64,000 bases of DNA from an uncultured bacterium (GTDB taxonomy: Bacteria; Zhuqueibacterota; QNDG01; DSAB01), in contig CAZYVD010000010.1 of assembly GCA_964651045.1 (NCBI GenBank), forward strand, positions 828 through 64,827. Reading direction: 5' to 3'. This document shows, piece after piece, positions 34,744 through 47,076 of the stretch (position 1 is the first letter of the stretch; each line of letters opens with the position of its first letter). The notes under the pieces were generated by a model. The model saw only the letters and a list, made by a program, of their open reading frames with translations, made no database searches and was not told the origin of the DNA. The position numbers and the translations under genes are program-made.

Positions 34744-34765
34744 CGCAGGGGCAAGAGCCCCTGCA
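34744..34765. repeat. REP-like palindrome, right (inverted copy of the left)
   Basis: CGCAGGGGC-aaga-GCCCCTGCA matches the reverse complement of the left copy at 21/22 positions. Confidence 0.85.
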
Positions 34766-34818: not shown

Positions 34819-35655
34819 CTACTCCTTTCCCCTCTCTGCAACACGACGTGACCTTTTTACTATAGCCGCAACAATCAAAGCGAGTCCCATAAAGCTAACA
34901 ACCGAAGGACCGCATGAAAAATCCAGTGAATAGGAAAATGCCAGTCCCACAATAGATGCAGAAATTCCCAGAAGCCAGGCTAGCAACATCCTTTTAAACC
35001 AGCTCGAAGTGAAAATTGCGGCAAATGTAGTCGGTATGATCAAGAATGAAAATATGGCTAAAACACCACCTATTCTGACTGAAATTGTTATAACCAATCC
35101 CATAGATACATAAAATAGAAAATCCCACCATGCTGCTCTGGAATCCTTCTCAATCGTCCTTCGATAATCTTTAGAAAGTGTTGTAAATTTATTTCTAAAA
35201 ATATAATGAAAAAGACCCACGATCAAATACACAGATGTACATATTAAAATATCATGCCATTTTGCCCATAATATGCTTCCTGTCAGCATATGCTCTAAAT
35301 GTACATCCCCTCCTGCAGCAAGAGCGAGTAGAAAAAGAGCAAGTGCTGCAGAGACGGCATACGATACACCGATAATTGCTTCCTGGGTTATCTGTGTAAC
35401 TCGCTTTATTATTTGTGAATAGAAAAATGCTGCCAGTATGGTAAATCCAAATGCTGAAAAATATGCAATTATGCTGGTATCCTCGATCCTCCACAGGGTA
35501 AAAACCAGTACAGTACCAACTGCTGCAACCTGGGCCAAAGCAATATCAATAAACACAATCTCCCTTTCAAGCACATGAATGCCTAAATAACCAAATATTC
35601 CTATCATGACCGCACATGCCACAAATGGAGGAAATAAAAATCCAATTACTTCCAT
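34819..35655 (-). CDS. Metal ABC transporter permease (ABC-3/ZnuB-like)
   Basis: GIHVLEREIVFIDIALAQVAA, EAIIGVSY, LTGSILW, FSFLIIP. Confidence 0.9.
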   Translation of the reverse strand: MEVIGFLFPPFVACAVMIGIFGYLGIHVLEREIVFIDIALAQVAAVGTVLVFTLWRIEDTSIIAYFSAFGFTILAAFFYSQIIKRVTQITQEAIIGVSYAVSAALALFLLALAAGGDVHLEHMLTGSILWAKWHDILICTSVYLIVGLFHYIFRNKFTTLSKDYRRTIEKDSRAAWWDFLFYVSMGLVITISVRIGGVLAIFSFLIIPTTFAAIFTSSWFKRMLLAWLLGISASIVGLAFSYSLDFSCGPSVVSFMGLALIVAAIVKRSRRVAERGKE

Positions 35656-35666
35656 TTTTCTTCCTT

Positions 35667-36494
35667 TCAGTTATTAGTACTGTATGCTTTTCTGTTCAAT
35701 CCGATCCGTATGATGAGAGCAAAAATAAAAAACAGGCCCAGAGAAAGTACCAGAGTGGGCCCATATGGCAGCCGGAAAAAATATGATGAAAACAGGCCTA
35801 CCATTGAAGCAACAAAACCAACAATCCAACCGATCCTCAGTGCATCGCCCCATCCCTTAGTAAACAGTGCTGCAATAGATGCCGGTATCATCAAGAATCC
35901 ATATGCTAAAAGCACTCCAGCAATAGGAACTATTAACACGGTTATAATACCAAGCGAGATGAAAAAGAAAAGGTCCCACAAATTCTCATTTGGTATTGTT
36001 CCTGGTTTTTCGGTTATTGTGATAAATTTATGACGATATTTATAGTGAAAGATCCCAAGAAGAATATAAACAAAAACTGTAACCACAACAAGCGGCCAGT
36101 TTACCCAGAGCATACATCCCGACTGAGTCTGGGTTACATATGAAGAGCCTCCACTAAATTTATCTGCTACCATGAAAGAGCTGACAAGGGCCAATCCATA
36201 TATTATGCCGATTACAGCCTCATGCGGAACTCGCTCTGATTTCGGCTTAACAAATGCAAGAAGTACCGAACCTATAAGCACTGCAACAAATGAGACAAAG
36301 TAGGAATAAGTCGATCCTCCTCCTATTCCCAATCCAATACCAATTATAATGCCCAGTGCAGCAAGCTGATCCAGTGCAAGATCACTGAATACAATACCTC
36401 TTCTGATTACATGCAGCCCCAGATATGTATGTACTGATGTTACTACAGCAAGCAGTACTATTTGAATCGATAAAAAATTAAACGTCTCCCACAT
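35667..36494 (-). CDS. Metal ABC transporter permease (ABC-3), paralog
   Basis: GLHVIRRGIVFSDLALDQLAA, EAVIGIIY, FLMIPA. Confidence 0.9.
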   Translation of the reverse strand: MWETFNFLSIQIVLLAVVTSVHTYLGLHVIRRGIVFSDLALDQLAALGIIIGIGLGIGGGSTYSYFVSFVAVLIGSVLLAFVKPKSERVPHEAVIGIIYGLALVSSFMVADKFSGGSSYVTQTQSGCMLWVNWPLVVVTVFVYILLGIFHYKYRHKFITITEKPGTIPNENLWDLFFFISLGIITVLIVPIAGVLLAYGFLMIPASIAALFTKGWGDALRIGWIVGFVASMVGLFSSYFFRLPYGPTLVLSLGLFFIFALIIRIGLNRKAYSTNN

Positions 36495-36519
36495 AAGATT
36501 CTCCTAAAATTGAGTAATT

Positions 36520-37554
36520 CTATTCTGAAACAGCCTCTACTATGTGATCGATCCAATAATCCATCAGTTTAAAATTATCTGAAACCTCTGGATTTCCGCC
36601 AACAGAAAGTGGAAGAAAAAGTGCCATAATTCCTGTCTTCTGGGCAATAGTGGTCGGTTTTCTCTTCTCAAAATAGTCTGCCACCAGCATGACATCAATC
36701 CCACTATCTTTAATGAGTTTAATCATCTTTTCAACATGCTTTGGTGTGGGAGGAATGCCTGGTTTTGGTTCAATGTATCCAAGAACCTTCATCCCAAAGT
36801 CATGAGCAAAATAGGCCCAGTTTTTATGATAGGCAATGACCTCCTTACCGTGCAGCGGCATGGCCTTTTTCATCCATCCACCGAGTCTTTTTACCAGCTT
36901 CTCGCCTCTAAATTCCCTTTCAATAAAATCAAAGAATGTGCCTGCCTTAACAAGATCCATCAGCTGCTGCCCGCCTATTAAATCAACGAGTTCATCGCCA
37001 AACATTGCCCTGTAAACACGGTCTACAAACCTTTTCTGTCTCTCTTCATAATATGATGCATGATCCGGATCTACCTTTTTCAATCCAATCAGGATATTCT
37101 CTGAAATAGGAATCCAGTTTCTGGGGCTGGTATGAATGTGAGGATTTCCATAAACATGAATATCTCCCTCTGTCCTGCTCAGAGCAGTCGTTGGTTTTTG
37201 CAAAAGCTCGATACCAGGATATACGGTAACATATCCAATCGCCCCATCCATGATCTTCTTGTTTCGCGCCTTGTCGAGCAGTGTTGTTGCCCAGAGCTCT
37301 AAATCCAGTCCTGTTGTTATAAAAAGATCTGCCTTTTTAAGCTTTATTGCAAGACTCGGCTTTGGAGGCACAAAATGGGGATCCTGATCGCCGTGTGACA
37401 GGTGATCAACAGTGACATAATCTCCGCCAATCTCCTTTACAATCGAAGCATAATCTGAAAATGTAGTAACAACATAGAGTTTGCCTTCCTGTGCAGATAT
37501 CATTGTAAATGTAAAAACTACTGCCAAAACGAAAATCAATTTACTCTTATTCAT
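36520..37554 (-). CDS. Metal ABC substrate-binding protein (ZnuA/TroA-like)
   Basis: GDQDPHFV, GLDLE, GDIHVYGNPHIH, YHKNW.YF, EPKPGIPPTPKH. Confidence 0.92.
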   Translation of the reverse strand: MNKSKLIFVLAVVFTFTMISAQEGKLYVVTTFSDYASIVKEIGGDYVTVDHLSHGDQDPHFVPPKPSLAIKLKKADLFITTGLDLELWATTLLDKARNKKIMDGAIGYVTVYPGIELLQKPTTALSRTEGDIHVYGNPHIHTSPRNWIPISENILIGLKKVDPDHASYYEERQKRFVDRVYRAMFGDELVDLIGGQQLMDLVKAGTFFDFIEREFRGEKLVKRLGGWMKKAMPLHGKEVIAYHKNWAYFAHDFGMKVLGYIEPKPGIPPTPKHVEKMIKLIKDSGIDVMLVADYFEKRKPTTIAQKTGIMALFLPLSVGGNPEVSDNFKLMDYWIDHIVEAVSE

Positions 37555-37606
37555 TGTCCACTCCTCTTTTAATTCATATAATAAAAAATACTATATAGAT
37601 TATTGA

Positions 37607-38926
37607 TCAATATGCTTCATGCTTATGGGGTCCCATTGACCAGACCGTCTGAATAAAGAATGTATGATCATTCTCTTCATAACTGCGGTAAGTATAGCTG
37701 TACTGGAACCTCATCATGACAAATTCTGACTGCCAGAAATCGACATAGGGAGTTATATCCCATTCATACTCCTTATTAACAACAGTTGGCAACTCCGAAT
37801 AACCCGCTCTGATACCTATCCAGAACCTGCGCCCGAGTTTATTGGAGATGTATGAATAGAAACCAAATCTATCGATTGCTCCATCCTTTCTGTTTCTGTG
37901 GCTGTAAAAAAATTCGTTTCTGAACTCTACAGTACGATAGTGAGCCCTGTCAACAGGAGCCCATTTATAGGTAATATCCAACCCCACAAGGGTCGTTCTG
38001 TACCCTGCCTTTTTATCGTTATATCCATTTGCACCTGAAAATCCAATCTCTATATAGGCATCTCTCGAAAGGTCATAATAGTTCTTCAGATGTGTAACAA
38101 ATATGACATTATCATTAGCATCATCAAAACTCACTCCATCTCCGCCTGTAACTATCTCTATATCGAGTTCGTTGACATGGGCCCACAGCCTGGGAAGCAA
38201 AAAGTTTGCTCCAACACCTATCCCTGCAAAATTATTCTTAGAAAAAAGATTGGTCAGCACCCTTGGACGGTCAACCTGAGGAAGACCGTGATCGTGCCAT
38301 CTGTTCAATATTCCAAACTGTGTATTAAACAGTCCAATCTTCAAGTTCATATTGGCCGGAAGATTGAGCCATTCCATATAGGCCTCTCCTATCATAAAAC
38401 TTAAGGGATATTCTCCTACTCCCGGTATGCCAAGAAAAAACTTACCTCTTGTAAATGGATCGAGTGGAGCAATGATATGAAATTCTGCCTCCCTCATATA
38501 AAACATATTCCGTCCATCTGTGAAATCGCCATCATTTACTATGACATCACTTTTCCCTGAGGATACACTTCCAAAAAAGTCACCAGTCATACTAATGTTG
38601 GGATTCAGCGCCTGAAGCTGTCTCTGCCCTCCTCTGAAGACTCTCGAAATCGTAGCTTCCTCTTTTTTCTTTGTCCTCGAGAGATCGCTTGCAGCATTGA
38701 GAAGTGCCTCCATTTCTGCCTTCTCCTTCTCTTCCTTTCTCGCCTTCTCTATGGCAGAGATTCTGCTGTCCAGATCCTTCAATTTTTTCAGATAGCAGTT
38801 CCTTAGCGAATCGAGCTCTGATAAGGCCTTTTTTATATCACTGTCCTTCTTTTTTTGAGCAGCCACGCCTGTACTCAAAGAGAGCATAAACATACACCCT
38901 GCAAATAGAGTAATCCATCTCATCAT
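37607..38926 (-). CDS. Outer-membrane beta-barrel (metal-uptake associated porin) with N-terminal coiled coil
   Basis: Signal, coiled coil, LNPNISMTGDF, FGILNRWHDHGLPQVDRP, alternating beta-strands, C-terminal MGPHKHEAY. Confidence 0.75.
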   Translation of the reverse strand: MMRWITLFAGCMFMLSLSTGVAAQKKKDSDIKKALSELDSLRNCYLKKLKDLDSRISAIEKARKEEKEKAEMEALLNAASDLSRTKKKEEATISRVFRGGQRQLQALNPNISMTGDFFGSVSSGKSDVIVNDGDFTDGRNMFYMREAEFHIIAPLDPFTRGKFFLGIPGVGEYPLSFMIGEAYMEWLNLPANMNLKIGLFNTQFGILNRWHDHGLPQVDRPRVLTNLFSKNNFAGIGVGANFLLPRLWAHVNELDIEIVTGGDGVSFDDANDNVIFVTHLKNYYDLSRDAYIEIGFSGANGYNDKKAGYRTTLVGLDITYKWAPVDRAHYRTVEFRNEFFYSHRNRKDGAIDRFGFYSYISNKLGRRFWIGIRAGYSELPTVVNKEYEWDITPYVDFWQSEFVMMRFQYSYTYRSYEENDHTFFIQTVWSMGPHKHEAY

Positions 38927-38991: not shown

Positions 38992-39294
38992 CTATGCAGG
39001 CGGGGCACGCGGATTGGGTCTTGATGATAAGACTTTTTGTGGTGTTAGAATGATTTCTTCTAAGGATATGTATTCAATGGTTATTGGCTGGACACATGTT
39101 GAACCCATGATGGGCATGATCTCCGGGATATCATTCTTTATTTGAATCTCCCAATGGCATGCCGGGCAATTATCATGGAATCTAAAATCCTGCTTGTGAT
39201 TGTGTAAAAGGGGGCTTAATAAATATATTGCTAAAAAATATGTCAGTACAATAGAGAATAATATTTTATATATAATTTTATAATTATGATTCAT
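38992..39294 (-). CDS. DUF2946-like leader protein with CxxC and C-terminal RAPP motif
   Basis: Hydrophobic N-terminus, HNH...HDNCPACH, ends PNPRAPPA-stop; 65 bp upstream of the porin gene. Confidence 0.75.
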   Translation of the reverse strand: MNHNYKIIYKILFSIVLTYFLAIYLLSPLLHNHKQDFRFHDNCPACHWEIQIKNDIPEIMPIMGSTCVQPITIEYISLEEIILTPQKVLSSRPNPRAPPA

Positions 39295-39325
39295 AATATA
39301 AACACTAATATTTTAAAGTAAAACT

Positions 39326-39354
39326 AAGATAAATAATTTTATTCTCGAATGCAA
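39326..39354 (-). promoter_or_regulatory. Putative sigma70-type promoter of the metal uptake operon
   Basis: On the minus strand TTGCAT, 17-bp spacer, TATCTT. Confidence 0.55.
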
Positions 39355-39471
39355 GCATTTTCCGCCGAACCATATTAATTAAAAATAAAATATCGATCGA
39401 TAGCTACATATATAATTTGAAAATACAAACACTTAGATTCTGTCTATTCATGGTAAGGGTAACATTTAAAT

Positions 39472-39503
39472 AAAAAAGCCCTACTCTATTAAGAGTAAGG
39501 CTT
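39472..39503 (-). terminator. Intrinsic terminator after the sigma54-type regulator
   Basis: Minus strand AAGCCTTACTCT-taat-AGAGTAGGGCTT followed by TTTT. Confidence 0.75.
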
Positions 39504-39527
39504 CATCTGTTTAAACTTCTGCTACTT

Positions 39528-40454
39528 TTAAAACTCTTTCTTTGAGAAACCATACTTTTTCATCTTGTAGCGCAGAGCGGCCTCTGAAATCTTAAGAGCC
39601 CTTGCCGATTTTGTCTGATTTCCTGCATATCTGCGGAGCGACTTGCGAATCATATACTTCTCGACTTCACCCACAGAACTCGGCAGATCCATGCCATCCA
39701 AGAATTCAAAGGGATGCCTCCTCACCTCAAATGGTAAATACTCTATCGAAAGCTTATCCTCTGGTGACAGCAGTATCAAATTCTCTATGGCATTCTTCAA
39801 TTCTGTTACATTACCTGGCCACTCATACTCCATAATCGACTCGAATAAAAGTGTTGGAACTGCGGGCATCTCCTCCTGCGAATCTTTAAAATGTTCGTTC
39901 ATAAAGTGGTTAAAAAGAATAGGAATGTCCTGCCTCCTGTTCCTCAGTGGTGGGAGATAGATTTTGAGTTGACTCAGAAGAGCCAGAAAATCCTGCCGAA
40001 ATGTCTCCTTTTTCAGTTTCTTCTCATCCGTGGCAGAAGCTATCAAGCGAATATCTATCTTTACATACTCATCCTCTGAAGGCCTTTTGAATTTACCCTC
40101 TTTAAAAATATTGAAAAATCTTTTCTGATACTCTGGATCAAGATCTTCTACGTTTTCAAGAAATAGTATGCCTCTGTTCGCCTTCTCAATAATACCGAGT
40201 TTGCGTTCAAAACCCTTCGGGCCTTCTACTCTCTTTCCAAATATCTCATCATCCGTAATCGTGTCGCCAACCGCAGGACAATTCAAAACCACAAATGGCT
40301 TCCTGACCCTTGTACTCCGATGGCGTATCTCAAGAGCCGTGTGTTTTCTTCCTGTCCCGACCTCCCCAATTATCAACACATTAACATCCGACTTGCCGGC
40401 TTCTCGTATTATTCTTCTTGCCGTCAATATTTCAGGACTCTGTCCTAATAACAT
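39528..40454 (-). CDS. Sigma54-interaction-domain/Fis-HTH regulator, degenerate, with no sensor domain
   Basis: Start ATG 40454 with AGGAGG. bEBP layout (LPPLRNRRQDIP, YEWPGNVTEL, GNQTKSARALKIS) but altered Walker A, Walker B and GAFTGA positions. Confidence 0.85.
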   Translation of the reverse strand: MLLGQSPEILTARRIIREAGKSDVNVLIIGEVGTGRKHTALEIRHRSTRVRKPFVVLNCPAVGDTITDDEIFGKRVEGPKGFERKLGIIEKANRGILFLENVEDLDPEYQKRFFNIFKEGKFKRPSEDEYVKIDIRLIASATDEKKLKKETFRQDFLALLSQLKIYLPPLRNRRQDIPILFNHFMNEHFKDSQEEMPAVPTLLFESIMEYEWPGNVTELKNAIENLILLSPEDKLSIEYLPFEVRRHPFEFLDGMDLPSSVGEVEKYMIRKSLRRYAGNQTKSARALKISEAALRYKMKKYGFSKKEF

Positions 40455-40700
40455 AATACACCTCCTATTGCTATTCTCATCTTTAATATCTCTTTCACCT
40501 CTAATTCTCTTAAAATAAAATATAATATTTTTTTCGAATAAATCAAGATAAATAATAAATATTTTTATTTTATTCACAATTAACTTGTGGGAGAAATCGA
40601 ATTCAGCAGAGTTAAAAGGTATTCTTTAGCTGAATTAACAATTTTAGCTGCTGTGAGAATAATTTGGTAGGCCTATTAGCAATAATTCAATCAATGTGGA

Positions 40701-43700
40701 TTAAATAGATAACCTCTTGAATTTTATAGAAATCTTCTCAAAAGTAACATATAGAACCGGAATTACTGTAAGCACCATTACCGTAGATGCGATTAAACCT
40801 CCAATTGTTGCAAGTGCAAGTGCATACCAGATGTCACCAGATTCGCTTCCTAAAATCACAAGTGGAAGCAGGCCACCAATGGTAGTAAACGTTGTCATCA
40901 GGATCGGCCTCATTCTGTTTGAGGTTCCATTAATGACAGCCTCTTTAATACTTAAACCTTCCCTTCTCAATCTGTTTATATGATCAATTAAAATGATCGA
41001 GTCGTTAACAACAATTCCTCCAAGCAGTATAACACCAATATATGCAGAACGATCAAAAGATGTACCGGTCAGATAGAATATTAAAAAAACACCTGAGAGT
41101 GAAAACGGTACAGTCAGAAGAATGAGAAAAGGATGAAGAATCGACTCAAAAAGACCGGCAGTTACCAGAAATACGAGCAGAAGAGAAATACCGAGTATAA
41201 AAAAGATTTCATTCTTCTCTTTTTTGCTCATTCTATAACTTCTGCCATTATCCACACTGTACCCTGGCGGAACATGTGTTGTATTTATTATGCTCTCAAT
41301 GAGACGATTACATAGCTTCTGAGGACCTCTAAACTCAAATCCAACATATCGCATGTACTGCTGATTCTCTCTCAAAATCTCCTCCATTGTCTTTCGTTTT
41401 GTTATGAGAGCAACCTCACCTAAACGTACCCCCTCTCCCCTCTTTGTTGGTATGAGCAGATTCTTTAAATCCATCATTGAAAAATCTTTATAAGTTTTAA
41501 ACTTAATTGTACACCCTATCTCATCACCGCCCATTCTGACCCGCTGGGCACCAAGATTTTCCCTCAAAAAAGCACTCACATTGTATAGAACCTCCAATAT
41601 TGTGATATCGTATTTCATCAACTTTTCTCTATCAATACTAAGAACAGTCTCATATGAGTTTCCATATGAATAGACATAAGCCATATCTTCATTCACATTT
41701 TTCACTCTTACATATTTCCTGAGCCTTTTTCCTATATCGTGTGCTATCTTTTTTATTCTGTCATAGTTGTATCCAAGAATCTTTATACTATTTCCCATTA
41801 CCCAATAGGAAGATCCTATAGAGAATGGCTCACCAAAACCATATATTGAAACATCTATGCCCGACATCTGTGCTGCAACTCCTATCAACTCCTCTTTTAG
41901 AATATATGGAAAACTTGTGGATAGAACCTCCTCAGGGAATTTTATTCTCATGCTTGCACTTTCATCATAAACATTTGTTGAAATCTTTTCCACAAAATTT
42001 TTTTTGAGAGCTATGTTTTCAAATTTTCTAATAATCTTATCGGTGCGCTCCAGTTCTGCACCTTTTGGCAGTCTTATGCCTACATACAGGACCTCTCTTC
42101 TTCCCCAGCCCGACCATATCCTTCCCTTCGTAACATACCTGTCAAAAATATAGTATGAAAATCCAAGCAGGATGAGGAGAACAGACAATACAACTCCCCT
42201 GTGATCAACCATCCTGCTCAATGTTCGCTTAAACCATCCCAGAGGTTTAAAAACCCGAATCTTTTCGACAGCAAGTTCTTCTTCTGAAAAAAACCTTGCT
42301 GTGAGTGAAGGGGTCAGTGAAAATGCAACAACTATTGAAGAAAGAAGAGAAAAACCAACGGCCATTGCAAATGGAAGATAGTAGATGCGAAGCTCGCCTG
42401 TCATGTACAAAAAAGGCAAAAAGGCTACAACTGTTGTAAGAGTAGATGCCATTATTGGAAGCACAACCTCTTTTGTACCATGTATAGCAGAATCGATCAG
42501 CCTCTCGCCACCTCCACATCTTCTTATTATATTCTCCACAACAACAATGGCATTGTCAACAAGCATACCAAACCCAAGAGTGAGCCCAGCTAATGTGAGA
42601 AGATTGAGAGTGATTTTAAAGATTAAAAACAGATTGAGACTCATGAGAACCGAGAAAAAGATTGTGGAAATTATGATTATCGGTGAACGATATGTGTGTA
42701 AAAATATCATAAGAACAAGAAAAATAACCACAACGGAAAACAGGGATTTCTGAGCAAGTGAGGAGAGATTGTCCCGAATCTCTCTACTCTGATCATCATC
42801 AACAATCATTGTAAGGTTGGCGGGCAGCCTATCTTTAATTACATCAAGCTTTTCCATTATTCTATCTGCACAACTTACAATGTTTGTTCCGATCTCCCTG
42901 TCGATATTGATAACCACTGCAGGATTACCATTTATTCTGGAAAGGCTCCTTGCACGCCCAAAAGTATCAAAAACCTGGGCAACATCTTTGATTCTGACAA
43001 CTCCACCATCCTTTGTGGTCTTGATTATAGCATTACTGATTTCATCAGCATCTTTTATTGGAGTATCTATAAATATGGACTGACGAGTTCCTCCCTGATC
43101 TATTGCACCAATATTCTCTTTCATCCCAAGCTCATTGAGCACAGCAGCAATACTGTAGAGTGAGAGTCCATATGAATCTAACCTGTGTTTATCCACAAGA
43201 ATCTCTATTTCACGATCCTGTCCTCCAATCACTGTAACATTTGCCACACCCTTTATTCCTAAAAGATATGGTCTGATTCTATCGAGTGCTATACTCCGAA
43301 GATCATTTATCGTGTAAGGCCCTGTCAGGCGAATTGAAAAGAAACGTCCTGTTCTGAATTTCCTCGGCTCATATCTGCTGATAGAAGGAGGCGACACGCC
43401 GTGGGGAAGCTCTTCTCGTACCATTGATAACTTTTCACTGAGCTCCATCTTTGCAAATTCCATATCGGTTCCACGACTGAACTGAAGTGTTACCTGAGAA
43501 TTTCCCTCACTTGAACTCGATGTTACTTTCTGAACACCCCTGATGGTATTTGCCACTGCCTCCAGTGGTGCTGTGACAAATGCCTCCATTACTTCTGGAG
43601 ATGTATAGGGCCATGAAACAGTGATTGTCAACTGGGGAAACTCTACATTTGGAGTAATCTCAAGAGGCAGATGAGTTGCAGAAAAAAAGCCTGTGAAGAG

Positions 43701-43763
43701 AATGACCAGAAAAATCATTGCAATTGCAATTGGACGTCTTATCGATGTTTCTATTAGATCCAT
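40701..43763 (-). CDS. RND efflux permease (AcrB/AcrD/AcrF family)
   Basis: P.VEFPQLTITV, GMLVDNAIVVVENI, RMRPILMTT, about 12 TM segments. Confidence 0.95.
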   Translation of the reverse strand: MDLIETSIRRPIAIAMIFLVILFTGFFSATHLPLEITPNVEFPQLTITVSWPYTSPEVMEAFVTAPLEAVANTIRGVQKVTSSSSEGNSQVTLQFSRGTDMEFAKMELSEKLSMVREELPHGVSPPSISRYEPRKFRTGRFFSIRLTGPYTINDLRSIALDRIRPYLLGIKGVANVTVIGGQDREIEILVDKHRLDSYGLSLYSIAAVLNELGMKENIGAIDQGGTRQSIFIDTPIKDADEISNAIIKTTKDGGVVRIKDVAQVFDTFGRARSLSRINGNPAVVINIDREIGTNIVSCADRIMEKLDVIKDRLPANLTMIVDDDQSREIRDNLSSLAQKSLFSVVVIFLVLMIFLHTYRSPIIIISTIFFSVLMSLNLFLIFKITLNLLTLAGLTLGFGMLVDNAIVVVENIIRRCGGGERLIDSAIHGTKEVVLPIMASTLTTVVAFLPFLYMTGELRIYYLPFAMAVGFSLLSSIVVAFSLTPSLTARFFSEEELAVEKIRVFKPLGWFKRTLSRMVDHRGVVLSVLLILLGFSYYIFDRYVTKGRIWSGWGRREVLYVGIRLPKGAELERTDKIIRKFENIALKKNFVEKISTNVYDESASMRIKFPEEVLSTSFPYILKEELIGVAAQMSGIDVSIYGFGEPFSIGSSYWVMGNSIKILGYNYDRIKKIAHDIGKRLRKYVRVKNVNEDMAYVYSYGNSYETVLSIDREKLMKYDITILEVLYNVSAFLRENLGAQRVRMGGDEIGCTIKFKTYKDFSMMDLKNLLIPTKRGEGVRLGEVALITKRKTMEEILRENQQYMRYVGFEFRGPQKLCNRLIESIINTTHVPPGYSVDNGRSYRMSKKEKNEIFFILGISLLLVFLVTAGLFESILHPFLILLTVPFSLSGVFLIFYLTGTSFDRSAYIGVILLGGIVVNDSIILIDHINRLRREGLSIKEAVINGTSNRMRPILMTTFTTIGGLLPLVILGSESGDIWYALALATIGGLIASTVMVLTVIPVLYVTFEKISIKFKRLSI

Positions 43764-43830
43764 TTTCGATATATAATAATCTTAAAAAGTTAACTTCCAG
43801 CAATCCTCAGTATTGTAGCAATTAAACAAT

Positions 43831-46800
43831 CTAAACAGCCTCCTCCCTGCTCTGTCTCCTCTCAGAAACCAGGCTGTAGAGTACTGGAATCATAATAAGG
43901 GTTAGCACCGTAGATGTAAAGAGCCCACCTATAATTGCCAGTGCCAGTGGACGTTGCAGTTCTGCACCTGCACCCAGTCCACTGGCCATTGGTGCAAGCC
44001 CAAGTATGGTTGTTACTGATGTCATCACAATTGGCCTGAACCTCTTTCTTCCAGCATCCATTATTGCCCTCCGTACAGAACTGCCCCTCCTTCTTTCCTG
44101 ATTAATAAAATCTATCTTGACAATAGCATCATTGACTGCAATACCCACAAGCACAACAACACCTATCATAGAGATTACATTCAGAGACTGACCTGTCAAC
44201 AGCAAAAGCCATATTGTTCCCACAGCAGCCATCGGTATTGAGAATATTATGATAAGGGGATGAATTAAAGACTCAAACTGGGCAGCCATAATCATATAAA
44301 CAAGTACAATGGCCAGAATTCCTGCCCACATTAGACTTTTATACGATTGTGCCATCTCCTGCTTGGCACCACCTATTGAAATGTATGTGTCTGTACTCAG
44401 GGGAATGTCATCCATTTTATTCTCGAGCTTTTTTATCACCTGGGCGAGTGACTTTCCAGAAACATTAGCATAAAGACTTATTACCCTCGTCTGATCCTCA
44501 CGATGTATCTCTACAGCACCCCTTGACTTTGATATTGTTGCCACCTCTCTCAGTGGAATACCACTGTGTCCTGTAGGAATCGTTGTATTCATCAATCTCT
44601 CAATATCCATTCTGTTGGAAAATCGAGGTTTGACTCTGATATCTATCTTCTGCTCCATCTCCTTGAATTGAGAAGCAAGATCGCCTGTTAAATCATTCTT
44701 TATGAACCTTGCTATATTTCTAACCGAGAGTCCATACATCCCTGCTCTCTCTCTATCGATAACTATCCGATATTCCGGCCTGCCCACTTCGAAGTCGGAT
44801 TTTAAATCGGTTATCCCCGGCACTTCTCTACACTTCTCTTTTATCTTTTCTATAATCCCAAGAGCTTCCTCAAGCTTCTCACCGTAGACCTGAATAACTA
44901 TATCTGCTTCTGTGGTACCGAGTATCTGGCTTAGCACAGTCTGACCAGTACCAAATGTAACTTCTGCAGCACTGTTTGCAAATCTTTTTCTAAGATTATC
45001 CATTATACTTTTTGTCTTAACACCCCTCTTAACACGTACACGTATCTCGGCCTTATTGAGACCCGTATTTGCCATCCCGGTTCCTATCTGCTGTCGAATT
45101 AATCCCACACTGGAAAAAACATCCTGCACTCCATCTGTTTGCATTATTTCCCTTTCCATCTGCAAGACCAATTCATTTACTGCCGATAGAGATGTACCCG
45201 GCTCCATCCGCACCTCTATCCTGAACTCTCTCTGGTCGACTCTTGGCATAAGCTCTCTCGGAAGAATAAATCCTGCACCTGCGGTTATGAAGAGTATTAG
45301 TGCCATGATGAGCAGAGCAGCAACCCTGTTATCAAGTGCTGTATTTAAAACCTTCTCATACTTCTGCATGAGGAAAGATAGTATCCTGTTGAACTGTTTG
45401 AATATTGGATTTGTAAATCTATAAAACATAGCTCCGCATCTTTTAAGAATCAGAGATATAAGACTCATAACAATCCGATAAATATATCTGATAAGTTTAA
45501 ATATCGCTCCTAATACGATCCTGAAAGGAAACAGTATCCATCTTATCGGCCGCCTGTTTATGAAATCGATTTTCCCACCCCCAATCTCCTCTACATGGTC
45601 CACTTTACCATCACGCGAAAATCTTGATGCAAGCACTGGAAGAAGGGTTAATGAAACTACTAGAGAAGAAAGTAGTGCAAATGTTACTGTTATTGCCTGG
45701 TCCTTGAAAAGCTGTCCGGCAATTCCACGAACATACAATACCGGGAAAAATACTGCGATTGTCGTAAAGGTCGAAGCAGTTACTGCCATTGCTACCTCTT
45801 TTGTCCCATTCACTGCAGCTCTAACCATACCTGCACCACCTTCTCTATGGCGAAAGATGTTTTCGAGTACAACTATAGAACAATCCACAAGCATGCCCAC
45901 ACCAAGTGCAAGCCCACCAAGCGACATGAGATTCAGGCTCACACCAGTAAAATATAATAAAATGAATGTTCCGATTATCGATATTGGAATCGCAACAGAT
46001 ATACTAAGAGGATTTCTTATATCATTCATGAAAAAGAACAGTATAAAAAAGGCAAGAATACCTCCTAACACAATCGCCTGCAGAACGTTAGAAACTGCCT
46101 TTGATATGAAATCTGCCTGATCATAGGCTATGACTATTGGTATTCTTGGATACTCCATCCTCAGTTGTGATAGAACCTGCTTTACTCTTTTCGATACTCT
46201 TACGGTATTTGCGCCGGCCTCTTTGGTCAGCAGTATTCCTATGCTCTCTTCTCCATTGTAGTGGGTTATGTTCTGCCTCTCTTTGAAACCCTGTTTTACA
46301 ACTGCCACATCTCTGAGATGTATTATTGAACCATCCCTTTCTCTTTTTATTACTACAGATTCCATCTCTTTTACATTCTGGAAAGAACCGATTGTACGAA
46401 GAGAGTAGCGATATCTGCCCTTTTTGATGGTGCCCCCAGGCATATCAACATTTGCATTATCAATTGCAGCCGAGATATGATCTATAGTCAAACCGAGGGC
46501 CTCGATCTTCTCTTTGTCTACATCTACCTGGACCTCTCTCTCCATTCCGCCAACCACATCGGCAAGTGCAACTCCCCTTATCTGTTCCAATCTTCTCTTG
46601 AAAACATTCCTGCTTATCTCTTTTAATGAAACAAGATCCCTTCCCGAAACAGAAAGAGCAATGATCGGCTGCTGTGAAGGATCGAGATGAATGAGTGTTG
46701 GCCTTCCAGCATCTTCAGGAAGACTCCTGCTAATTGCATCGAGCTTCTCTCTTACGTGAAGAGAGGCAAAATCCATGTTCTGTCCCCAGTTGAATTCCAG

Positions 46801-47076
46801 GATTATCTGGGAAAGCCCCTCTTTTGAGAACGATCTTATTTTACGAATCCCTGCTACTGTTGATACACTCTGTTCAATTGGTTTTGTTATCAGTCGCTCG
46901 ACCTCCTCTGGTACTGCATTTGGAAATACAGTATACACAGTTAACTTTGGATAAGAAAGATCCGGCAGCAAATCCACAGACAACCTGCCAAGTGACACAA
47001 AACCCAAAAGAAGTATGCCCGTATAGAACATTATTACTGCAACGGGACGTCTTGTTACGAGTTCTGCAATATGCAT
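43831..47076 (-). CDS. RND efflux permease, paralog
   Basis: DLLPDLSYP, GMLVDCSIVVLENI, AQFESLIHP, RFRPIVMTS. Confidence 0.95.
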   Translation of the reverse strand: MHIAELVTRRPVAVIMFYTGILLLGFVSLGRLSVDLLPDLSYPKLTVYTVFPNAVPEEVERLITKPIEQSVSTVAGIRKIRSFSKEGLSQIILEFNWGQNMDFASLHVREKLDAISRSLPEDAGRPTLIHLDPSQQPIIALSVSGRDLVSLKEISRNVFKRRLEQIRGVALADVVGGMEREVQVDVDKEKIEALGLTIDHISAAIDNANVDMPGGTIKKGRYRYSLRTIGSFQNVKEMESVVIKRERDGSIIHLRDVAVVKQGFKERQNITHYNGEESIGILLTKEAGANTVRVSKRVKQVLSQLRMEYPRIPIVIAYDQADFISKAVSNVLQAIVLGGILAFFILFFFMNDIRNPLSISVAIPISIIGTFILLYFTGVSLNLMSLGGLALGVGMLVDCSIVVLENIFRHREGGAGMVRAAVNGTKEVAMAVTASTFTTIAVFFPVLYVRGIAGQLFKDQAITVTFALLSSLVVSLTLLPVLASRFSRDGKVDHVEEIGGGKIDFINRRPIRWILFPFRIVLGAIFKLIRYIYRIVMSLISLILKRCGAMFYRFTNPIFKQFNRILSFLMQKYEKVLNTALDNRVAALLIMALILFITAGAGFILPRELMPRVDQREFRIEVRMEPGTSLSAVNELVLQMEREIMQTDGVQDVFSSVGLIRQQIGTGMANTGLNKAEIRVRVKRGVKTKSIMDNLRKRFANSAAEVTFGTGQTVLSQILGTTEADIVIQVYGEKLEEALGIIEKIKEKCREVPGITDLKSDFEVGRPEYRIVIDRERAGMYGLSVRNIARFIKNDLTGDLASQFKEMEQKIDIRVKPRFSNRMDIERLMNTTIPTGHSGIPLREVATISKSRGAVEIHREDQTRVISLYANVSGKSLAQVIKKLENKMDDIPLSTDTYISIGGAKQEMAQSYKSLMWAGILAIVLVYMIMAAQFESLIHPLIIIFSIPMAAVGTIWLLLLTGQSLNVISMIGVVVLVGIAVNDAIVKIDFINQERRRGSSVRRAIMDAGRKRFRPIVMTSVTTILGLAPMASGLGAGAELQRPLALAIIGGLFTSTVLTLIMIPVLYSLVSERRQSREEAV

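Follow-up and report, generated by a model that had tools for sequence, protein, structure and literature searches.

The window analysed here, a 64,000-nucleotide stretch of a contig from an uncultured bacterium of the Zhuqueibacterota, carries a five-gene operon that probably imports metal without ATP. It encodes a short leader, an outer-membrane porin, a periplasmic binding protein of the ZnuA type and two permeases with the membrane domain of the ABC-3 family of ATP-binding cassette (ABC) importers, and with a probability of roughly 0.55 we read it as an ATPase-free relay of porin, binding protein and permease that takes up a divalent metal, most likely Zn(II). The five genes lie on the minus strand of contig C10 (67 kb), in the order leader open reading frame (ORF), porin, binding protein, permease A and permease B, separated by gaps of 65, 52, 25 and 11 nt from the 5' to the 3' end of the operon:

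38992-39294, minus strand: leader ORF, 100 amino acids (aa), with homologues 5' of the porin in 14 related loci
37607-38926, minus strand: outer-membrane porin, 439 aa, recognised from an AlphaFold model and Foldseek; no Pfam match
36520-37554, minus strand: ZnuA-type periplasmic binding protein, 344 aa (PF01297, 158.8 bits)
35667-36494, minus strand: permease A, 275 aa, a divergent ABC-3 membrane domain (PF00950, 68.4 bits)
34819-35655, minus strand: permease B, 278 aa, a divergent ABC-3 membrane domain (PF00950, 92.5 bits)

In the mechanism that we propose, the porin, of the trimeric type and with His in its constriction loop and C-terminal tail, would let the ion in; the soluble ZnuA-type protein, with its three-His site, would dock at the periplasmic mouth of the porin, pick up the ion and ferry it to the inner membrane; and permeases A and B, as a heterodimer, would pass it to the cytoplasm without an ABC ATPase, acting as a uniporter gated by the binding protein or as an ion-coupled carrier. 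The driving force would be the inside-negative membrane potential together with a metal sink in the cytoplasm. What the analysis shows is which genes are present and how they are conserved, the lack of a cognate ATPase, the folds and the lost docking signature; transport direction, metal, energy source, heterodimer and the contact of porin with binding protein, known from a model only, are inferred. An inside-negative potential alone suffices to drive the accumulation of a divalent cation.

Conservation of the cassette in related genomes

We gathered 37 loci, made up of the window, 20 loci in genomes of its own phylum and 16 in those of other phyla, and added five more with independent gene calls and precomputed Pfam labels. 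On every contig that is long enough (42 loci, at least six phyla) the porin gene is followed by the binding-protein gene and then by one or two permease genes, and because the same gene order is found in 42 loci the arrangement is not a matter of chance; the cassette is widespread but has hardly been studied, and the window has its version with two permeases. The source records of loci L033-L048 are metagenome-assembled genomes (MAGs) labelled Gemmatimonadota, Planctomycetota (Pirellulales, Phycisphaerae), Chthoniobacterales, Thermoanaerobaculia and Bacteroidaceae. When the neighbouring genes of the 37 loci were clustered all against all, the only ones kept were the core genes, the leader and antisense shadow ORFs.

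A gene for a nucleotide-binding domain (NBD), the ATPase of an ABC importer, was found in or next to the operon in none of the 37 loci, and the five further loci show the same pattern. An earlier note on this DNA had described the porin, a ZnuA-like protein and two ABC-3 permeases as one operon with no ATPase gene in it or flanking it. Both points hold: the four genes are co-directional on the minus strand at the coordinates listed above, and neither the operon, the contig nor the 42 related loci contain such a gene. The same note allowed that a cognate NBD might be consistently linked in relatives and merely relocated here, and the count speaks against this (0/42 loci). In the classical znuA-znuC-znuB operons, which appear as weak ABC-3 matches in the same relatives, the NBD lies between the binding protein and the permease in 12 of 12 cases. 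Sixteen of 41 relatives have a ZnuC-like NBD, each time adjoining a classical ABC-3 permease. The cassette itself is present in 24 of the 41, and 15 of these 24 lack a ZnuC-like NBD, several of them being 97-99% complete.

Two complete Gemmatimonadota chromosomes (the L039 and L043 records) each have a single ABC-3 gene, that of the cassette, and their best NBD matches belong to an operon of binding protein, FecCD, NBD and TonB receptor and to an Mla operon. In genomes other than that of the window, NBDs with intermediate scores (150-181 bits) were considered as partners in trans; the five that were checked by Pfam proved to be parts of complete FecCD, Mla or CysA-type sets.

Some of the relatives depart from the common pattern. 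In L089 (2332-12659) the cassette stands directly after a classical operon of TonB receptor, ZnuA, NBD and ABC-3 permease, forming a metal-uptake island, and it adjoins a NikR-type regulator and CbiM/PDGLE/CbiQ genes. Four genomes of one genus within the same taxonomic order (G013, G019, G025 and G030) carry a second class of NBD that scores 210-213 bits against the ZnuC-like profile described below; two of the four gave no match to permease B by sequence search, the ABC-3 family model not having been applied to them. In G019 a distant, partial version of the porin and an ABC-3 gene share one contig.

Search for a partner ATPase

The genome to which the window belongs is a MAG of 102 contigs and 99.82% completeness. 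A six-frame search with the ABC_tran model (PF00005) found 35 places in it, none of them on contig C10. Its only ABC-3 genes are permeases A and B, and a search of the genome for FecCD gave nothing, hence type II importers other than the cassette are missing from it. The best NBD of the genome reached 85 bits with the E. coli ZnuC model (cut-off 306), within a smooth background. With a ZnuC-like profile for the phylum, built from 12 same-phylum NBDs (alignment A1) and giving its true members 290-454 bits, the best score was 139.7 bits. The search for an orphan ZnuC-like NBD, one of the checks suggested in the earlier note, has accordingly come back empty, and a ZnuC relocated within the genome was set aside, as the E. 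coli ZnuC, anchored-repeat NBD and phylum ZnuC-like profiles all yielded background matches only. The cognate NBD is absent from this genome and from the two Gemmatimonadota chromosomes, and because no ZnuC-like NBD exists in these genomes it has not simply been moved elsewhere.

The NBDs that the genome does have are of other kinds. The first ten were named by NCBIfam as LptB, MacB/LolD-like, MlaF-like, MsbA, the energy-coupling factor (ECF) ATPase EcfA, GldA-like and FtsE, and nearly all of the 25 adjoin a partner with several transmembrane (TM) segments. Those with no adjoining partner are LptB, a pair of ECF ATPases at a contig end, an MsbA-type piece at a contig end and a fragment of 101 aa. 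A LolD-like NBD on contig C19 that had seemed an orphan has an FtsX permease directly 5' of it.

Permeases

Both permeases exceed the PF00950 cut-off of 20.1 bits, and they are 33% identical to each other. The AlphaFold model of permease B, with a mean predicted local distance difference test (pLDDT) score of 95.1, superposes on PsaC (7kyp) with a template-modelling score (TM-score) of 0.80 and on HI1471, BtuC and BhuU with 0.64-0.69. In a quick, midpoint-rooted tree the cassette permeases form a clade of their own, joined to the classical ABC-3 permeases by a long branch (support 100), and permease A in turn has its own clade (Shimodaira-Hasegawa-like approximate likelihood ratio test, 100). 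Permeases in the first and in the second position of the operon fall into two separate clades, with the single-permease forms basal, and therefore appear to stem from one old duplication that has been kept as a pair. Kept as such a pair, permeases A and B are likely to form a heterodimer, as the earlier note had supposed. All NCBIfam equivalogs remain far under their cut-offs for the importer components of the cassette.

At the metal-coordination site in TM2, permease A has D38-x-x-x-D42 and permease B has D37-x-x-x-A41, so that only the Asp of the Asp-x-x-x-His pair is kept. R31 is invariant in the permeases (alignment A4), and Arg also occurs there in the classical permeases of the phylum; by analogy with other type II importers, we read it as a residue on which the binding protein may dock.

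The region that in classical permeases meets the ATPase is among the most variable. The cytoplasmic loop between TM5 and TM6 has a conserved F-D-x-x-x-A-x-x-S-G and a fixed length in the phylum's classical permeases. This motif is absent from permeases A and B, the latter having S-K-D-Y-R-R-T-I-E-K-D instead; the loop is four residues shorter in permease A, and in B it shows indels and varying length. Column entropy of the loop lies at the 95th-99th percentile in the cassette permeases (the 99th for B) against the 62nd in the classical ones. Invariant residues new to the cassette permeases flank it: F-H-Y-x-x-R precedes the loop and W-D-F follows. H150, R154 and D178, which border the former coupling loop, are specific to the family. 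The sequence signature for ATPase docking is lost, while loss of the structural element is not demonstrable. An inspection of the coupling helix, another check suggested in the earlier note, gave a divided answer on this point, with helices still modelled in permease B and the classical motif gone from a loop that is hypervariable or shortened.

Several permeases are longer than usual. The single permeases of L065 (7810-9150, minus strand) and L067 (7861-9174, minus strand), both from relatives in the window's phylum, have a C-terminal extension of about 170 aa, made up of an extra TM segment and a helical cytoplasmic domain that Pfam does not recognise. The second permease of L057 is fused to DUF805, and the extension of the L045 permease looks like an over-extended ORF. 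The extra domains of these four long permeases (L045, L057, L065 and L067) were considered as places where an NBD might be hidden, and none is an NBD.

The chief alternative to be weighed against this evidence is an ordinary ABC importer whose permease pair works with an ATPase borrowed from elsewhere in the genome; with neither a ZnuC nor a FecE type in this genome, an NBD of some other system would have to act as donor. For every NBD of the genome there is a partner of its own or a known role, and no type II NBD was found here or in chromosome G043, where the best match is MlaF. The NBD of another ABC class would have to dock, for which we know of no precedent, and it would do so on a hypervariable loop with indels and of unequal length in A and B, so that a symmetric NBD dimer would face two unlike sites. 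A number of observations nevertheless weigh against an ATPase-free machine, and most of them would suit a borrowed ATPase. Short helices (residues 154-162 and 164-170) are retained at the coupling-helix position in the model of permease B. Many single-permease relatives retain a remnant, S-x-x-P-x-x-A-x-x-x-G. Nine of the 24 cassette-bearing relatives also hold a classical ZnuC that could be borrowed, and in L089 such a ZnuC is encoded about 5 kb from the cassette. The genome is a MAG in 102 pieces, and the porin family also travels, in L094, with an ATPase-containing ZnuCB-A set. Finally, unlinked and shared ATPases are established for CUT1 sugar ABC importers (PMC9601137). On balance we consider a borrowed ATPase rather unlikely. 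The earlier note had proposed an NBD acting in trans or none at all; the choice has been narrowed towards none, without proof, and an importer that works with no ATPase is the reading that we carry forward.

Binding protein and metal

The binding protein has a signal peptide without a lipobox Cys. H60, H139 and H243 do not vary among 30 family members and fall, in the alignment, on the three ligand positions of solved ZnuA and MntC relatives, and H133 and H273 are further invariant His. Where proteins of the Mn/Fe type have an Asp as fourth ligand, there is a Pro here. Residues 181-222 form a conserved insertion of about 40 residues between the two lobes, which the classical ZnuA of the same phylum lacks, and this insertion and a K-P-G-I-P-P motif are specific to the family. 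The protein lies under every NCBIfam equivalog cut-off (ZnuA, AztC and MntC), the top score being 82.6 bits for AztC against a cut-off of 350.

As judged from its aligned residues, the ligand pattern (three His and no Mn-type Asp) favours zinc. The genome contains no ZIP and no classical Znu system, and one Nramp is present; the cassette is therefore its only recognisable candidate for high-affinity zinc uptake, a role for which we infer it to be suited from the three-His ligands and from the want of ZIP and classical Znu.

The same ATPase-free machine might instead carry another metal (Cu, Ni, Co or Mn), which we regard as possible if still distinctly the less probable choice. Zinc is named here from ligand residues only, and this too counts against our reading, as does the fact that the Cys/His leader peptide, with its conserved C-P-A-C and His motif, and the NikR-type regulator beside the L089 cassette, together with its CbiM/CbiQ neighbours, would suit Cu or Ni as well. 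The permease site consists of carboxylates throughout (D, D, D), without the Asp/His pair, and the binding protein has the two extra invariant His, H133 and H273. For zinc, on the other side, stand the three-His site with no carboxylate ligand, which is the pattern of ZnuA, and the genome's Nramp, which would serve Mn/Fe, there being no other recognisable zinc importer. A Vibrio cluster with the same parts list, likened to the cassette by description only, is zinc-regulated (PMC9817125, PMC3794297). Zinc thus remains the metal that we favour for the relay.

Porin and its contact with the binding protein

The porin begins with a signal peptide and a long helix to about residue 88, followed by a 16-strand barrel (AlphaFold model, pLDDT 88.6, 50 homologues). 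Compared with the PDB by Foldseek, the model is closest to OprP (2o4v, E 8.5e-12), followed by OprO, general porins and DcaP, at about 11% identity. The sequence matched no Pfam family at E<=0.01, Porin_O_P included, and no NCBIfam model; neither Plug nor TonB_dep_Rec was matched, and the model has 16 strands and not the 22 of a TonB receptor. The earlier note's suggestion of a barrel independent of TonB is borne out by this OprP-like fold. The long third loop, which joins strands 5 and 6 and in porins forms the constriction, contains a conserved N-R-W-H-D-H (alignment A2). After the last strand comes G-P-H-K-H-E-A-Y, nearly invariant in the 50 homologues (alignment A2) and, by virtue of that position, periplasmic; the barrel had been called His-tailed, and the C-terminal His are indeed there, the "tail" amounting to this short motif.

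The family is large and has received no names: a word-indexed search returned 598 proteins, every one of them called "hypothetical", and a profile search at least 1264 clusters at 50% identity (E<=1e-30). Of 167 genomes sampled from the window's phylum, 100 have the porin, a tally that takes in two unpublished genomes (G163 and G167), and the names attached to homologues include KSB1, Latescibacterota and Bacteroidota. An unusual member occurs in L094 (6225-10166; JGI 3300036768, contig Ga0373638_0000408), where a 681-aa ORF, P0266, joins an ABC-3 permease to a barrel of the porin family. Its ABC-3 portion (residues 9-261) scores as a classical one, at 180 bits, and the barrel occupies residues 345-677; an ABC_tran gene lies 5' of it and a ZnuA gene 3'. 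P0266 is either a real fusion spanning two membranes or the product of a missed stop or a frameshift.

Because the genes for the porin and the binding protein stay together in all loci of sufficient length, the two proteins were modelled as a complex. The interaction prediction score from aligned errors (ipSAE) was 0.64, the best control giving 0.01; the ipSAE mark used is reached by 58 of 80 solved complexes and by 2 of 110 mismatched pairs. Runs agreed in at least 79% of contacts, with a partner pLDDT of 86. No solved complex of a porin with a ZnuA-type binding protein is known to us, and it seems unlikely, for that reason, that the model merely repeats a known structure. On the porin side the predicted interface takes in all seven periplasmic turns and residue 433 of the tail; on the other side it takes in the face of the binding protein round the metal cleft (residues 54-73, 87-105, 266-268 and 293-296), the insertion at 181-222 falling outside it. 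The model supports a placement in which the metal cleft would sit over the periplasmic mouth of the porin. The cleft face of such a binding protein normally docks on the permease, and since the porin would use that same face, the binding protein would have to shuttle between the membranes and would not bridge them. Conserved porin residues make up 8 of 31 at the modelled interface and 54 of 340 overall; these are hand counts, on which we do not lean.

The modelled contact is compatible with movement in either direction, and so with a system that is no importer at all and moves metal outward, from the inner membrane through the binding protein to the porin, or serves as a periplasmic metal buffer or sensor. 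This we hold to be very improbable. Every ZnuA/ABC-3 system characterised to date is, to our knowledge, an importer. Export of a cation against an inside-negative potential needs an energy source, which is missing here; the invariant R31 of the permeases, if rightly read by analogy as a docking residue for the binding protein, speaks for import; and predicted resistance-nodulation-division (RND) efflux genes are encoded separately, 5' of the operon (ORFs at 40701-47076). Inward transport is accordingly the direction that we assign to the relay.

Operon limits and neighbouring genes

The remaining features of the region are as follows:

34744-34765, minus strand: terminator-like hairpin 54 nt 3' of permease B, with a 9-bp stem, seven G-C pairs and a T-rich tail
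39295-39504, minus strand: non-coding region 5' of the operon, with consensus promoter matches only
39475-39504, minus strand: terminator-like hairpin of the preceding regulator gene, from a hairpin search
39528-40577, minus strand: sigma-54 activator-like AAA+ gene 5' of the operon, with a Fis-type helix-turn-helix and without a sensor domain

The hairpin at 34744-34765 is likely to mark the end of the operon, whose neighbour on the 3' side is a convergent Bat operon. As to its extent, the earlier note was right about the four large genes and had the start wrong, having missed the leader ORF, which places the beginning one gene earlier. The terminator-like hairpin at 39475-39504 stands between the sigma-54 activator-like gene and the operon, and no convincing -24/-12 match to a sigma-54 promoter was seen when the sequence 5' of the operon was read by eye.

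The leader ORF has a hydrophobic N-terminal segment, an H-D-N-C-P-A-C-H-W-E motif and R-A-P-P-A before the stop, and it matched nothing in Pfam or NCBIfam. Throughout its family (15 sequences, from the window and the L049-L067 homologues) H-D-N-C-P-A-C-(Q/H)-W-E is kept, along with R-(A/G/S)-P-P a few residues from the stop. Going by these motifs, the family would fit a metal-sensing leader that stalls the ribosome.

Comparison with known systems

ABC importers are defined by their ATPase. The nearest known systems are the cluster A-I metal importers (ABC-3, TC 3.A.1.15), among them ZnuABC, PsaBCA/MntABC and TroABCD, which share with the cassette a binding protein of the ZnuA fold with His ligands. 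The type II fold of permease B is that of PsaC, and TroABCD has two permease paralogues, TroC and TroD, as does the cassette. In PsaC the metal-coordinating pair of TM2 is Asp46/His50 (PMC8346216). The cassette permeases keep the acidic residue at this position, the Asp/His pair becoming D..D in permease A and D..A in permease B. The cassette differs from the ABC-3 importers in further respects. The dedicated ATPase of the ZnuC, PsaB or TroB type, normally part of the operon, is wanting in the operon, in the 42 related loci and in the genome; the coupling-loop signature is lost; and the cassette has an obligatory link to a porin gene.

A parallel in the literature is the omr-znuAII-znuBII cluster of Vibrio parahaemolyticus. 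Besides an outer-membrane gene it encodes a further ZnuA and a further ZnuB, and znuC is not listed among its genes (PMC3794297, PMC9817125), an absence on which neither paper comments. The cluster is Zur-regulated, its induction under zinc deficiency being 283- to 1034-fold (PMC9817125), and growth under zinc chelation by TPEN requires ZnuAII (Vpa1307), a protein assigned to a "novel subfamily of ZnuA" (PMC3794297). Its parts list is like that of the cassette, a likeness by description and not by sequence. Peptides derived from the published primers, D-K-Q-D-P-H-Y-V and H-G-N-P-H, resemble the G-D-Q-D-P-H-F-V and G-N-P-H of the cassette family, as far as primer reads go, and the first two His ligands of Vpa1307 are 79 residues apart, the same spacing as in the cassette binding protein. 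Scans of metagenomes with the primer-derived patterns and a plasmid search gave no match to vpa1307. The two systems differ in that the Vibrio outer-membrane gene is annotated as a TonB-dependent receptor and that there is one permease and not two; Vibrio also has ZnuC and ZrgC, so that borrowing of an ATPase would be possible there.

In principle the proposed relay resembles the tripartite ATP-independent periplasmic (TRAP) and tripartite tricarboxylate (TTT) transporters, in which a periplasmic binding protein feeds a carrier driven by a gradient or potential. Those systems, however, have unrelated membrane proteins (DctQM, TctAB), organic anions as substrates and no known porin partner. At the outer membrane, the 16-strand barrel is common to the cassette porin, OprP/OprO and the DcaP of Acinetobacter (identity 11-13%), and the cassette porin and DcaP also share a long N-terminal helix, a type of element that builds a periplasmic coiled coil. 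The cassette porin differs from all three in having conserved His in place of the arginine ladder, a conserved periplasmic tail and a genetic tie to a binding protein.

Full-text literature searches returned no description of an ATPase-less ABC-3 system. We put forward, tentatively and at somewhat less than even odds, that the cassette is the first transporter class to combine the membrane domain of an ABC importer and a binding protein with no ATPase, being gated by the binding protein, driven by the potential and physically coupled to a dedicated porin, from whose periplasmic mouth and His tail the binding protein would receive the ion directly. If this is correct, the type II membrane fold can serve as a secondary carrier or a gated channel, which bears on how these proteins are gated and how they evolved, and a direct hand-off from porin to binding protein would be a new way for metals to cross the periplasm. 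Many genome annotations of "metal ABC transporter" are probably wrong as to the energy source. With its three to four genes the cassette is small, and it sets beside the ABC-3 importers, which share its permease fold and its type of binding protein, a form that would run on the membrane potential.

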